Shown here: piece after piece, positions 55,595 to 64,000 of the stretch
Layout of the letters: each line of letters opens with the position of its first letter
Position numbering within the stretch: the first letter of the stretch is position 1
Source: Eledone cirrhosa
Taxonomy: Eukaryota
Assembly: GCA_964016885.1 (NCBI GenBank)
Contig: OZ024741.1
Span: forward strand, 114,948,001-115,012,000
Direction of reading: 5' to 3'
DNA length: 64,000 bases
Program-made: the position numbers and the translations under genes
The notes under the pieces: generated by a model
What the model saw: the letters and a program-made list of their open reading frames with translations, nothing else
The model's database searches: none
What the model was told of the DNA's origin: nothing

Positions 55595-56118
55595 CCCCAA
55601 AGGTCAATTACAAAAAAGATAGTTGGCATGACAGGCCTTGACTATTGGTGTCGATTAGAAAAGCACAAACTTTATTCTCTCCAACGTTGCCGTGAGCGCT
55701 ACATTATCTGCATGATGTGGAAAATATTCCATCAGCTTTGCCCAAATGATGTTGGCATAATCTTTAGTGTACACCCAAGGCTTGGACCCGGTGCTATCCG
55801 CCCACGACAAAAATCTCACTCGCATCACATAACAACAATACGGCACAATTATTTCACCTCAATTGGCCCTGCACTCTTTAACATTACACCAAAACACATC
55901 AAAGCAGAGACAGAACCCATCAAGTTCAAGAAGTCTTTGGACAAATTCCTTAAAGAAATCCCGGATAAGCCTCCTACACCCGGATATGTATCCGTAAACA
56001 ATAACTCTCTGCTTGAGTGGGCCATGGTGCCCAAACACTGATATGTAAGACTTCGCCAGGTGGTGCTATTAAGTTAGACATGGCCTGGGCCAATACTGGC
56101 CGAAACCTATCAAAGTTA
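55595..56118 (+). mobile_element. 5'-truncated copy of a LINE related to 56782-61398, inserted in (TA)n
   Basis: [33 protein letters not shown]; conserved 3' UTR ending CAAAGTTA(TA)n. Confidence 0.92.
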
Positions 56119-56717: not shown

Positions 56718-56783
<66 letters not shown>

Positions 56784-57188
56784 CAGTTGAGCAGTTGAAG
56801 TATAAGGACGTGTTTTTACTTCTCTCCCCGAGTAAGCAGCAAGTCACACAGCCACAAAACAAAACAAAACCAAACAAACAAAAATTGACCGGTTAATACA
56901 TTTACATACATCTATATTATTATATATTTGAAACCACGTGTTTTCGAACTTGTGAGTACATTTTCCTTTAACTACAAATTATTATTATATACTTTCGTCT
57001 TTTCATTAACTTAATTAATTTCAAATAACCAGAATATACATATATATATATATATACTCATATTTATATATATACTCTTCTCACTCACACACAAGAAAAA
57101 CAAAAAACAAAAATAAATCAAAAATAAATTCAAAAAAAATATATATATATTGAAATACTTAACTAAAACACACACACTCAAAACTAGA

Positions 57189-58322
57189 ATGGCTAACCAG
57201 CAAAAATCCAAACAGAACTGGTCTGATAATGAAATCGACATTCTAATAAACACATGGCATTGCCTTACCCAAACAGAAGACATAGATGCTTCATCTCTGA
57301 ACGACATTGCTAAACGTACAGTTCAATTTTTGAAAACTCGATCTGAACAACAGATTCAAAATAAATTAAAGCAAATCGAAATTGCTTTTAAATTAATCAA
57401 TAAACATTTGGATAAACTACGGTGTGTTTTTTCTTCGAATGCTGTCCAGCAGCAGCAACAACAACAACAGCAGCTACAACGGCAACAACAACAACAGCAA
57501 CAACAACAACAACGACAACAACAGTGTGAACCACTCCTTGATTCATCAACAATGGCCGATCTACTAAATGAAACTATTGACCCCCCAGTAGCCTCTGTCT
57601 CACAGTATGAAACGCCACATCCTTTCTCTGGCCCAGCAGTCCAATCATCACCACTGCCAACATCTCTGCCTACTACTACTACTACTACTACAACATTTTT
57701 GTCTACTGCTATGTCAAGGAATTTAACTTCTAATACCAGAACAAGAACTCTCCCTCCCACAGTCCACAAAGGTCGTCAAATCCTACCCAAACCATCATCT
57801 ACACCTCTCACAACACACACACCCACATACCCACCCACTCGAAACCCCATCATTTTCCGCTACTCTCTACGCTATAGAATATGTACGGATAGTGGCTGCA
57901 AATTCACCCATTTACCTAGGATAAAACGATCTATCCCCACAAACAGCCACCACCATAATACATACTCTAATTTAACACCAACACAACCACCAATAACTCA
58001 AACAAGGAATCCACTAATCTGCCGCTTTTCCCTGCGAGACAGATTGTGTTTAGACCGGGATTGTCCCTTTACCCATCTCCCGGGGACTCGTCGGACAAAT
58101 GAAAATAAAAATAAAATTAAAAATAAAAGCAAAAACAAAAACCATAACCTACATAAAAATAACCACTACCACAGTCACCAACAGTCTTCTAAACAGGAAA
58201 CTTCTTCCTCTTTTTTAGCCATAATGAATCTGGCAAAAGAACTGAAAAAAAACATTCGAGCTATCACCCAGCACCACCCTCCACTATCACCCCACTGCAC
58301 AAACTCCCATTGCTGCCATTAA
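57189..58322 (+). CDS. LINE ORF1: N-terminal Myb/SANT-like motif, polyQ, polyT, two CCCH-like fingers
   Basis: NWSDNEIDILINTW..RSEQQIQNK; CRFSLRDRLCLDRDCPFTH plus a degenerate first copy. Confidence 0.8.
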   Translation: MANQQKSKQNWSDNEIDILINTWHCLTQTEDIDASSLNDIAKRTVQFLKTRSEQQIQNKLKQIEIAFKLINKHLDKLRCVFSSNAVQQQQQQQQQLQRQQQQQQQQQQRQQQCEPLLDSSTMADLLNETIDPPVASVSQYETPHPFSGPAVQSSPLPTSLPTTTTTTTTFLSTAMSRNLTSNTRTRTLPPTVHKGRQILPKPSSTPLTTHTPTYPPTRNPIIFRYSLRYRICTDSGCKFTHLPRIKRSIPTNSHHHNTYSNLTPTQPPITQTRNPLICRFSLRDRLCLDRDCPFTHLPGTRRTNENKNKIKNKSKNKNHNLHKNNHYHSHQQSSKQETSSSFLAIMNLAKELKKNIRAITQHHPPLSPHCTNSHCCH

Positions 58323-61300
58323 CAAACAAACAAATTAACAACACACCAAAACAATTAAAACCATCCACTCTCGCCTCTACATTTTTGCTTAACGCCCAAG
58401 GCATCAGCCCTTCCACCAATACTCAAAAATGGAAGATCAAATTCCTGGAGGACTGGATTGATGTCCATCCAAACCACATCCCTTTCTTCGTCCTCACTGA
58501 AACCCATCTCAGTAACCTCCACTTGGAAGCCGAGGTGAAAGTTAAAAATGTCAAAGCCATCCGTGCTGATCGCGCTGGCAGAAGAAAGGGCGGAACTGCC
58601 ATTTATGTCCATAATTCTTTCTCAACAGAGGCTATGAACATATTCACTAATGGATACTGTGAAGCAGTCACTGTATTCAGTCAAACCAACAACCTATTAG
58701 TAGTTGGGCTCTATAGGCCACCCCAAACGCCTGTACCATGCTTCAAGGAATGCCTCAACAGCATAAAGTGTTTCATCCAAGAGTGTCACCCTGACAACAT
58801 CTTAATGATGGGGGACTTCAACCTCCCCGGAGTTGACTGGTCCACAAACAGCCTGCCACCAGGTTCTTCTGCCTCAACCTCTGACAGGGAAGCTGTGGAA
58901 TCGCTTCTTGACTTCATGGATGATTTCTTCCTATCCCAACTGGTGCTTGAACCAACAAGGTGCCACAAAAACGTCCTAGACTTAATTTTCAGCAATCACA
59001 CTGACAATATCCACAATATTGCAGTGGAGAAAACTCTACTCTCTGATCATGACATGGTTCTCTGTGATCTGAGATTCCACCGTCCAATATACAAACCCAA
59101 TGTCATCTCTCCTGTCCATCCGTTTGACGCTATGGATTTCCACAATGCAAACTGGGAAGCGATCAGTCATGATCTTGCACATGTCGACTGGTCCTTCACG
59201 CACACTCATACACCCACTAACATCAAAAAGTCCTGGCAGACATTTGTGGACACTGTTACAAACATATGTGCTAAACACACCCCATTAAGAACTATAAACA
59301 AATCTAAGAGCAGAATCCCTAGAAATAGAAAAACGCTCATCAGAAAAATTAAGAGAACGAACAAAAAAATCAACAAGCTGAAATACTGTCAGCAGCAACA
59401 CATCAACTTGACTGCCATTTCATCACTAGAGATTAAAAAACATAACCTCCAAAACAACATAATGTCCCTCCTCAACAATCAGAGAAGAGCTGAAGAGGCC
59501 TGGGCCATTGAGAAGATCAAACTCAATCCCCAAGTGTTCTTTTCATTTGCAAAAAAAACACAAAATCACTGGCTCTACTGTTGGCCCTCTAATTGATGAA
59601 AATGGCACTCTTCAAGACAATGCTAAAACCATGGGTGAGATACTGCAGAAACAATACTGCTCTGTTTTCAGCAATCCTGATATGGCCGATCTGGGCTGTA
59701 TCGGCGATGTTACTCCCCATTACACCTTATCGGACATAACGTTTGGCGCCCCTGATGTCTTGGCGGCAATAAAGGAAATCAAGCATAATTCAGCAGTAGG
59801 TCCCGATAGGTTCCCTGCTTGTGTCTTGAAGGCGTGTCAACACCAACTTGCATCTCCTCTTGCCAATCTGTGGCGGAACTCACTGGATGCTGGATATGTG
59901 CCAGAAAACCTTCTATCCCAGTCTGTTGTCCCAGTTTTCAAAAAGGGAAACAAATCCCTTGCCGTGAATTACCGTCCAATCTCACTCACCTCTCATATCA
60001 TTAAGGTATTTGAGAGAGTGGTGAGATCGCGAATGACCCACTTCCTTGAGAGTAACAATATGCTGAACTCCAACCAGCATGGATTCCGTAATGGAAGGGA
60101 TTGCCTGACGCAGCTACTGCATCACTTTGATGACATTTTGAGAGCCTTGGGAGAGGGTTCCAACACTGATGTTATCTACCTTGATTTCAGCAAGGCCTTT
60201 GACAGGGTTGATCATAACATTCTACTGAGAAAGCTGTCCAATATTGGTGTCACTGGAAAGCTGCTGCAGTGGATCAAGAGCTTCCTGTCAAACAGAACCC
60301 AACATGTTGTAGTTGAGGGAGTCAAATCAAGCCCAGCCAAAGTCAGTAGTGGGGTCCCACAAGGCACTGTGTTGGGCCCACTTCTCTTCATCATCTATAT
60401 TAATGACATCACTGACATCATCAAACTAAGCAACATTAAAATTTTCGCTGATGATTCCAAGCTCCAAAAGGTCATCAATGGCGTGGATGACCGGATAAGC
60501 CTTCAGTCAGACCTACTGGCTGTTACCCAATGGGCAGAAAAGAACAACATGTTACTGAACGAAGACAAATTCGAACTGATCCACTTTGGAAAAGAGGATG
60601 CTCTGAAACTCCCGTACTCCCTTCCCTCCGGGGAAACTCTCGTAGCATCTAACAACATCAGAGACTTGGGAGTAACCGTGGACAGCAACATAAGCTGGAC
60701 CACGCATATAAGCAGCAAAGTTGACATGGCCCGCAGAATGTGTTCCTGGATCCTCAGAACCTTCCAGTCGAGAGATTCCCGCACCATTATCCTTCTCTTC
60801 TCTACTTTTGCCCGACCACACCTTGAATACTGTTGTCCACTGTGGTCTCCCCACACGAAACAAAGTATCATGAAACTTGAAGCTCCTCAAAGGGCAATCA
60901 CGAAAAAGATAGATGGCATGTCAGACCTTGACTACTGGGGTCGATTAGAAAACCTGAAACTTTACTCACTCCAACGTCGCCGTGAGCGTTATATTATCTG
61001 CATGATGTGGAAAATGTTCCATCATCACTGCCCAAATGATGTTAGCATCACCTTCAAGATACACCCAAGGCTTGGGCCCCGTGCTATACGTCCCATTCAA
61101 AAATCTAAATCGCAACTCATAACAACAATACGGCACAATTATTTCACCTCAATCGGCCCTGCTCTCTTCAACATCACACCAGGACACGTCAAAACAGAAA
61201 CTGACCACACAAAATTCAAGAAGTCTTTGGACAAATTCCTCCAAGTAATCCCGGACAAACCACCCACACCCGGATATGTCTGCGCAAACAGTAATTCTCT

Positions 61301-61331
61301 TCTCGAATGGGCCATGGTACCCAAATCCTGA
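58310..61331 (+). pseudogene. LINE ORF2: APE endonuclease + reverse transcriptase, single +1 A frameshift in the A-run at 59551-59558
   Basis: LLNAQG, LTETHL, GGTAIYV, YRPP, MGDFN, VLDL, SDH; NYRPISLTS, QHGFR, LDFSKAFD, GVPQG.VLGP, FADD. Confidence 0.93.
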
Positions 61332-61415
61332 ATTGAAAGACTTCGCCAGGTGGTGCTATTAAGTTAGACATGGCCTGGGCCATTACTGGCCAAAACATTT
61401 CAAAGTTATTCAAAG

Positions 61416-61588
<173 letters not shown>

Positions 61589-61774: not shown

Positions 61775-61864
61775 CATACATTATATATACATTCATATAT
61801 ATATATTGCTATTTCAGAGCTCCAATTCTAATTTTTATATATATATATACATATATACATATAT

Positions 61865-61968
<104 letters not shown>

Positions 61969-62131
61969 TAGAATTGGAGCTCTGAAATAGCAATATATAT
62001 ATATGAATGTATATATAATGTATTTTGCAATACACTTTATGCTTAATTAAAAGCATTTTGAAGACCGTATGCTATCGTTTTAGAGTAGTGACAAACTCAC
62101 TTACTTTAATCTCAGCAAACAAGGGGAGATA

Positions 62132-62380: not shown

Positions 62381-64000
<1,620 letters not shown>

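Follow-up and report, generated by a model that had tools for sequence, protein, structure and literature searches.

Only for a few elements is it settled how a LINE RNA with two genes yields its scarce ORF2 protein, and one copy in the window (the whole 64,000-nucleotide stretch that was analysed) raises the question in a particular form, as its ORF2 begins inside ORF1, in another frame and without a start codon. The parts of the element are as follows.

56781-61419, + strand: full-length copy of a CR1-like LINE of young age, located within a (TA)n array.
57189-58322, + strand: ORF1, 377 aa (ATG 57189, TAA 58322).
58376-59059, + strand: APE endonuclease domain of ORF2 (PF14529, E 3.9e-14, and alignment), first conserved Asn at 58391.
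59463-61331, + strand: reverse transcriptase (RT) and C-terminal part of ORF2 (PF00078, E 2e-31).
61332-61419, + strand: 3' UTR; it contains, besides the tandem tail, a G-rich motif (61349-61357) and a hairpin at its end (read by eye).

The APE and RT domains in ORF2, the 5'-truncated copies and the tandem 3' tail, TTCAAAGTTA, identify an APE-type non-LTR retrotransposon. Its 5' end is the same as in copies L014, L025 and L028. Searching the 3.0-Gb genome with the element gave 1470 first-look candidates, the best 40 of which are 98-100% identical, and 37 of the 45 best genomic matches contain a 1045-aa stop-to-stop ORF2, which indicates a young family. In the window copy itself a one-base indel near 59550 breaks ORF2 and offsets the RT part. 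The nearest named relatives are stork hypothetical proteins (40-42% over the RT), which we take to be CR1-type, and like avian CR1 the element has an APE-RT ORF2. In an RT tree whose references were bird sequences only, with none named for L2, Crack, Daphne, Rex1 or Proto2, the element and its relatives split from the bird sequences as a separate branch (100/98, subject to a long-branch warning). The group likely belongs to the CR1 clade. The available parts of PMC4120745 and PMC10294476 contain no name for the clade, and those of PMC5006619 and PMC7175516 add nothing further on a clade name.

Read by eye, L031, L041, L043, L051, L054, L055 and L087 similarly finish at the 3' end with a short hairpin and, after it, a family-specific tandem tail of 7-10 nt, and in several of them a G-rich motif lies about 50 nt 5' of the tail. 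This arrangement is likely the RT recognition signal. Elsewhere in the window, 55596-56110 is the 3' part of an element from a sister LINE subfamily that has lost its 5' portion and likewise lies within (TA)n; there are 2858 first-look genome candidates for it, the best others being 94-96% identical. At 62550-64000 a unit is found in direct repeat at 483-nt spacing (98%) and then inverted; the inverted arms (62643-63140 and 63503-64000) are 98% alike and represent either a fold-back duplication or an assembly artefact. Short unique sequence at 61780-62030 has inverted copies flanking a TA array.

The ORF1 protein begins with a weak Myb/SANT-like region (PF13837, E 0.003, below the cut-off) and continues with poly-Q, two CCCH-like fingers and a basic linker before a Phe-Leu pair that, from its sequence, likely heads an amphipathic helix. 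The fingers were read from the sequence, and relatives give weak PHD and CCCH matches; the second is placed by its translation and a motif seen by eye.

58020-58076, + strand: second CCCH-like finger of ORF1.

No homologue was found at E ≤ 1 with the C-terminal part of ORF1 as the query. The Myb/SANT-like start (57189-57410) seems to be present in both families from this genome, whereas metagenome relatives L040-L056 have a PHD-like start, a difference that could possibly reflect a domain swap. In L054 (3-3080) and L055 (3-2753) the ORF1 frames exceed 900 aa and contain two PHD-like repeats. The CR1_2 subgroup is described as having a PHD-only, unclassified ORF1 (PMC4120745, in the part available), to which the weak PHD match in relatives of the window element is a likeness. 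However, ORF1 here has CCCH fingers, a term absent from the available text of PMC4120745, and in the window family it starts Myb/SANT-like instead of PHD.

The junction between the two frames contains the following features.

58193-58322, + strand: dual-coded overlap of 130 nt, without an ORF2-frame ATG.
58211-58217, + strand: T_TTT_TTA, a slippery heptamer at which the -1 shift is predicted.
58218-58375, + strand: S/T/P/N-rich linker in the ORF2 frame, 55 codons, from the shift site to the endonuclease.
58247-58253, + strand: second phased heptamer, A_AAA_AAC, family-specific and kept within the family, probably incidental.

The sequence-only reading of this DNA had proposed that ORF2 may be expressed by programmed -1 frameshifting, and its description of the junction is confirmed: the ORF2 frame is -1 relative to ORF1, opens at 58193 and stays open into the APE domain, both heptamers are in the correct phase, and the first in-frame ATG (58634) lies inside the APE, after Asn 58391. 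An ATG at 58224 belongs to the ORF1 frame, none occurs in any frame from 58227 to 58428, and the window copy has none near the ORF1 stop. Elsewhere, 12 such elements together have phased heptamers at only 51 of 12,661 codons, so that those of the window are more than chance would give.

Within the family the arrangement is constant. The -1 overlap is kept in 28 of 29 other copies and a single fused ORF is not the norm; the sole exception, L027, is a natural in-frame ORF1-ORF2 fusion created by one extra base in the A-run. An assembly error in the window as the source of the overlap was rejected, the overlap being common to other copies. Among the 650 genomic copies that contain the 21-mer downstream of the heptamer, TTTTTTAG stands directly before that 21-mer in 619, all with T_TTT_TTA intact, a count that excludes an assembly artefact and says little on selection, the copies being 98-99% alike. 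Contigs from a related organism (X8) have no substitution at a share of at least 10% in 58189-58225, where the only change is a 3-nt deletion at 58201; at many neighbouring sites they differ, including loss of the ORF1-frame ATG, and the heptamer is unchanged. Three further runs (X6, X7, X9) cover parts of the stretch only.

The two heptamers, both put forward as candidates by the earlier reading, fare differently outside the family. In the sister subfamily (APE ~70% identical) T_TTT_TTA is present in both junction-reaching copies among 20 fetched stretches, whereas A_AAA_AAC has become G AAA AAC/AAT in the same subfamily (L057, L062) and is absent in 11 other families. The second heptamer was rejected as the shift site on these grounds. 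The codon just 5' of it is AAA in the window copy and GAA in 29 of 29 other copies.

The same copies bear on whether CTTCTTCCTCTTTTTTAG (58201-58218) is a 3' splice site, with ORF2 read from spliced RNA. The site in the window is a pyrimidine tract ending in TAG, and 5 of 13 families, as well as the sister subfamily, have an AG immediately behind the heptamer; the remaining 8 of 13 have none there, and families with the heptamer G_GAT_TTT (described below) have no long pyrimidine tract. Spliced RNA should also enter the genome, yet 619 of 650 copies are unspliced, and seven of the 31 exceptions were examined without one proving to be spliced. A non-T occurs four bases before the supposed junction in only one of the 650 copies, and no X8 joint among those listed ends at 58219. 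Splicing is thus highly improbable as the source of ORF2.

The comparison was extended to diverged families. A metagenome scan that used endonuclease patterns only gave 20 loci, of which L038 was dropped as it does not reach ORF1. All 19 evaluable loci have the ORF1/ORF2 -1 overlap (202-325 nt), and with the window family they make up 12 families of 38-75% APE identity. In each of the 12, the first phased heptamer of the overlap falls at the same ORF1 Phe, which heads the helix-like motif 3' of the CCCH fingers: T_TTT_TTA in six families, G_GAT_TTT in five and G_TTT_TTA in one. Following G_GAT_TTT the next codon varies freely (CTG, CTC, CTA, CGG), as expected if the site had moved back by one codon.

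Part of the endonuclease of another branch, used as a query against the same genome, led to a second family, whose junction was unseen until it was fetched. Its APE is ~33% identical and its ORF2 is 1076 aa stop-to-stop, and all six intact copies have a 271-nt -1 overlap with T_TTT_TTA and no ATG. Ten further top matches comprise four with the site in phase, one with it out of phase, three without it (L080, L083 and L086, all broken) and two that are truncated. This family (L087-L092, for example G000:C1:169328000-169334200) is abundant and also lies in (TA)n; it has a (CT)n-rich leader, one CCCH finger and a Myb/SANT-like-looking ORF1 start.

The count is 13 families with the second family and 14 with the sister subfamily, at 33-75% APE identity. 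All 14 families whose DNA could be read have the -1 overlap, together with a phased site at the homologous position: T_TTT_TTA in eight, G_GAT_TTT, an umbravirus shift site, in five, and G_TTT_TTA in one, the last admitted through a 'variant' heptamer class that was set after the data were seen. The available text of PMC5009743 does not give G_UUU_UUA as a shift site. In the RT tree the site is found on all main branches of the group apart from the bird sequences (100/98, long-branch warning), and three of the G_GAT_TTT families, represented by two rows, group together.

These switches also bear on slippage of RNA polymerase on the T-run, by which an added base would fuse the two frames in some mRNAs. 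A T6 run does lie at the site and homopolymer indels occur in copies L027 and L126-L128. However, five families have only T4 behind an invariant GGA, as would suit re-pairing of tRNAs but not stutter by the polymerase. RNAs with an added base would also return to the genome as fused copies, whereas 619 of the 650 copies show the T6AG pattern and a C precedes the six T in most copies listed. Polymerase slippage is accordingly the least probable of the explanations considered, and extremely so.

The codons of the site may be compared with those used elsewhere in the same 13 elements. TTT TTA encodes none of the 55 other Phe-Leu pairs, and G GAT TTT is found at 2 of 39 other Asp-Phe pairs. Conserved Phe columns of the APE use TTT in 4, 4 and 8 of 12, none of 48 Leu codons in conserved columns is TTA, and third positions in conserved APE columns are scrambled, as are synonymous sites between families. 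The absence of TTT TTA and TTA from these control pairs and columns indicates conservation of the site beyond the need of the protein. Given the four amino acids and the codon use of each element, a slippery reading would arise by chance with a probability of 0.02-0.33 per family; the joint chance is ~10^-14.6, which assumes independent families and a variant class chosen post hoc. As the families are related, such joint probabilities overstate the case and 10^-14.6 is an upper bound on its strength.

As the open frame was followed backwards from the APE, what is observed is that in all families it opens ahead of the homologous Phe. Between the last stop in the -1 frame and the site there are 0-37 codons (mean 9.7), roughly the distance expected of a frame without constraint, and in L056 the stop directly abuts the heptamer. 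Past the site the ORF2 frame is open for 55-114 codons in 13 families, a pattern with a joint chance of ~10^-16.2 (again for related families). In 11 of 12 testable families no stretch of equal length nearer the start of ORF1 is open; in the window family 44 of 316 are.

It might be argued that Phe-Leu is kept only as the start of a helix that ORF1p needs; inheritance or base composition would then account for its codons and for the open -1 frame, and ORF2 would start in some other way. An FLxxLxQMKAD-type helix following the CCCH fingers is indeed conserved across families at the protein level, and stops are less dense on this C/A-rich strand. Set against this are the scrambled synonymous sites and the Phe-Leu control described above, and the family of L039-L041 has Phe-Arg in place of Phe-Leu and still has G_GAT_TTT. 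This explanation is very unlikely.

A different start for ORF2 would be reached if, in the manner proposed for mammalian L1, ribosomes terminated on ORF1 and reinitiated near its stop without an AUG; heptamer and overlap would then be by-products. In all 13 families the ORF1 stop is 2-71 nt ahead of the first conserved Asn, and the tail of ORF1 seems to be maintained as well (10^-6.8, for related families). CTG/TTG codons in poor context lie 7-25 nt before the stop in the window family, and no frameshift stimulator was found (see below). In Bombyx SART1 termination and reinitiation are coupled through UAAUG; a SART1-type in-frame AUG at or near the ORF1 stop is absent from the window element and from 11 of 13 families. 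Similarly, 11 of 13 families have no ATG upstream of the first conserved Asn, the exceptions being L052, with one 47 nt after the ORF1 stop, and L054, with two in the linker. L045 has no ATG, CTG, GTG, TTG or ACG there, and no near-cognate start is common to the families. Moreover, reinitiation leaves unexplained both the codon-exact heptamers and a -1 frame that is open 35-95 codons before the ORF1 stop, and in the second family that stop overlaps the first conserved Asn codon of the APE, which leaves no room for forward reinitiation. The place of the stop may also reflect the hydrophilic linker, which would delay ORF1-frame stops until the APE begins. Mammalian L1 has a bicistronic RNA from which ORF2 is rarely made, and its ORF2 is thought to initiate independently of AUG (PMC5009743, available text). 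Unlike L1 and SART1, the window element has a long dual-coded overlap, with neither a spacer nor a stop-start AUG. Reinitiation is, on balance, unlikely.

Programmed -1 frameshifting at T_TTT_TTA, giving an ORF1-ORF2 fusion of ~1,390 aa, is by contrast probable on comparative evidence, as re-pairing of tRNAs at a -1 shift site would be expected to leave such a pattern of overlap, phase and codon choice. Of the observations that the earlier reading named as refuting it, none was made: there is no general fused ORF, no ATG at the ORF1 stop of the window copy and no loss of the T_TTT_TTA position in any of the 14 families. Ribosomes translating ORF1 would slip back by one base at U_UUU_UUA (58211-58217) part of the time and go on in the ORF2 frame, producing a fusion of ORF1, linker, endonuclease and reverse transcriptase. 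For the intact copy L031 this protein would have 354 + 1037 = 1391 aa, with the junction ...ETSSSFL/SHNESGK. The majority of ribosomes would read ORF1 to its end, C-terminal helix included (388 aa in L031), and the slip rate would set the ratio of ORF1p to ORF2p. The fusion would stay whole unless cut by a host protease, since no protease domain is among the Pfam matches of the window element.

Relatives seen only as proteins were also considered. An FF-, VF-, IF- or GF-type trace of the site is present in 8 of 23 usable N-terminal extensions of at least 60 aa, a weak count in that codons are unseen, many extensions start after the site and five rows were dropped as mis-parsed or within ORF1. 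P0112 and P0092, with extensions of 194 and 145 aa that exceed any DNA-checked linker and have no expected FF/GF trace, may lack the site. Protein P0042 has CCCH fingers, Phe-Phe and the ORF2 linker, as the product of a -1 shift would read; this fusion and that of L027 may be errors or dead copies. P0039, P0093 and P0118 are relatives named as Mnemiopsis leidyi gene models, the first of which has an ORF1-type DFL helix joined to a truncated endonuclease and looks like a predicted intron replacing the frame change. The single-protein metagenome scan, viral-contig scans and prokaryote-genome scan gave no matches.

The arrangement resembles that of retroviral gag-pol, in which a structural nucleic-acid-binding ORF overlaps the RT ORF in -1 and the shift swaps the C-terminal tail of the first protein. 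The window element likewise has a -1 overlap between a nucleic-acid-binding-type ORF1 and an RT ORF, and its heptamer is the U_UUU_UUA of HIV-1 gag-pol (PMC5009743, in the part available). In contrast to retroviruses it is a non-LTR element with an APE, and no 3' stem-loop was found. G_GAU_UUU of an umbravirus (pea enation mosaic virus) is identical to the heptamer of 5 of 13 families, although these have no stop codon 3 nt after it, and the switch is hard to explain otherwise because it leads to a known viral site (PMC5009743, same portion). Among APE-type non-LTR elements, a -1 frameshift is stated to be required for ORF2 of Dictyostelium TRE5-A and TRE3-A (PMC5911963). These are a stated precedent, but they are amoebozoan and target tRNA genes, and the legend available from PMC5911963 gives no slippery site, conservation analysis or assay. 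Drosophila R1B has a -1 overlap of 14-59 bp between its ORFs (PMC2718515), a frameshift is required for HeT-A gag (PMC5009743), and +1 frameshifting or reinitiation has been suggested for Paramecium LINE groups 1-2 (PMC5405496). In the available portions of these sources no heptamer is named, and the HeT-A shift lies within gag and that of Paramecium is +1.

The earlier reading could identify no stimulatory structure, and this too stands: folding z values at the window junction are -0.14 to -0.82 over five windows. No local fold downstream of the site was enriched relative to shuffles at 14 loci (z +1.4 to -2.2), the usual 3' hairpin or pseudoknot 5-9 nt downstream was not found, and upstream folds gave z of -1.8 to +2.1. 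A crude pseudoknot scan gave 3 of 13 at ≤0.05 (0.16 for the window family), with no common geometry. In plant viruses of the umbravirus kind the frameshift region pairs over a long distance with the 3' UTR, and one segment of the overlap could pair in this way.

58270-58278, + strand: AGCACCACC, 9-bp complement of the 3' UTR at 61349-61357, an unsupported lead for a long-range stimulator.

An equally good helix is formed in 2 of 38 control windows, and across eight families long-range pairing with the 3' end of the same family is no better than with those of others (p=0.17), so that pairing of the umbravirus kind is unsupported in these LINE families. The likeliest form of the proposed shift would be a low-rate event driven by the heptamer alone, or one aided by a protein or by distant pairing.

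A broader proposal may be ventured, although in full it is doubtful: that an old animal LINE clade with a CCCH-finger ORF1 makes its RT only as an uncleaved ORF1p-ORF2p fusion, through -1 frameshifting that has swapped HIV-type and umbravirus-type heptamers without local RNA structure, the rate being set by the heptamer or by a protein in trans, possibly ORF1p itself via its CCCH fingers. In a search that left most subscription papers, Repbase reports and supplements outside, no paper was found to describe slippery heptamers conserved across a clade of animal LINEs, and an earlier mention may exist.

A seven-base site that persists in deeply diverged families, and is swapped for another known site in one branch, makes a gag-pol-like route to ORF2 directly testable. 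If frameshifting does occur, the group would represent a large natural set of -1 sites without an obvious stimulator, and its ORF2 gene models, which begin at an internal ATG or behind a predicted intron, would be wrong at the start. The reverse transcriptase would then arrive tethered to ORF1p, with a bearing on particle assembly and cis-preference.
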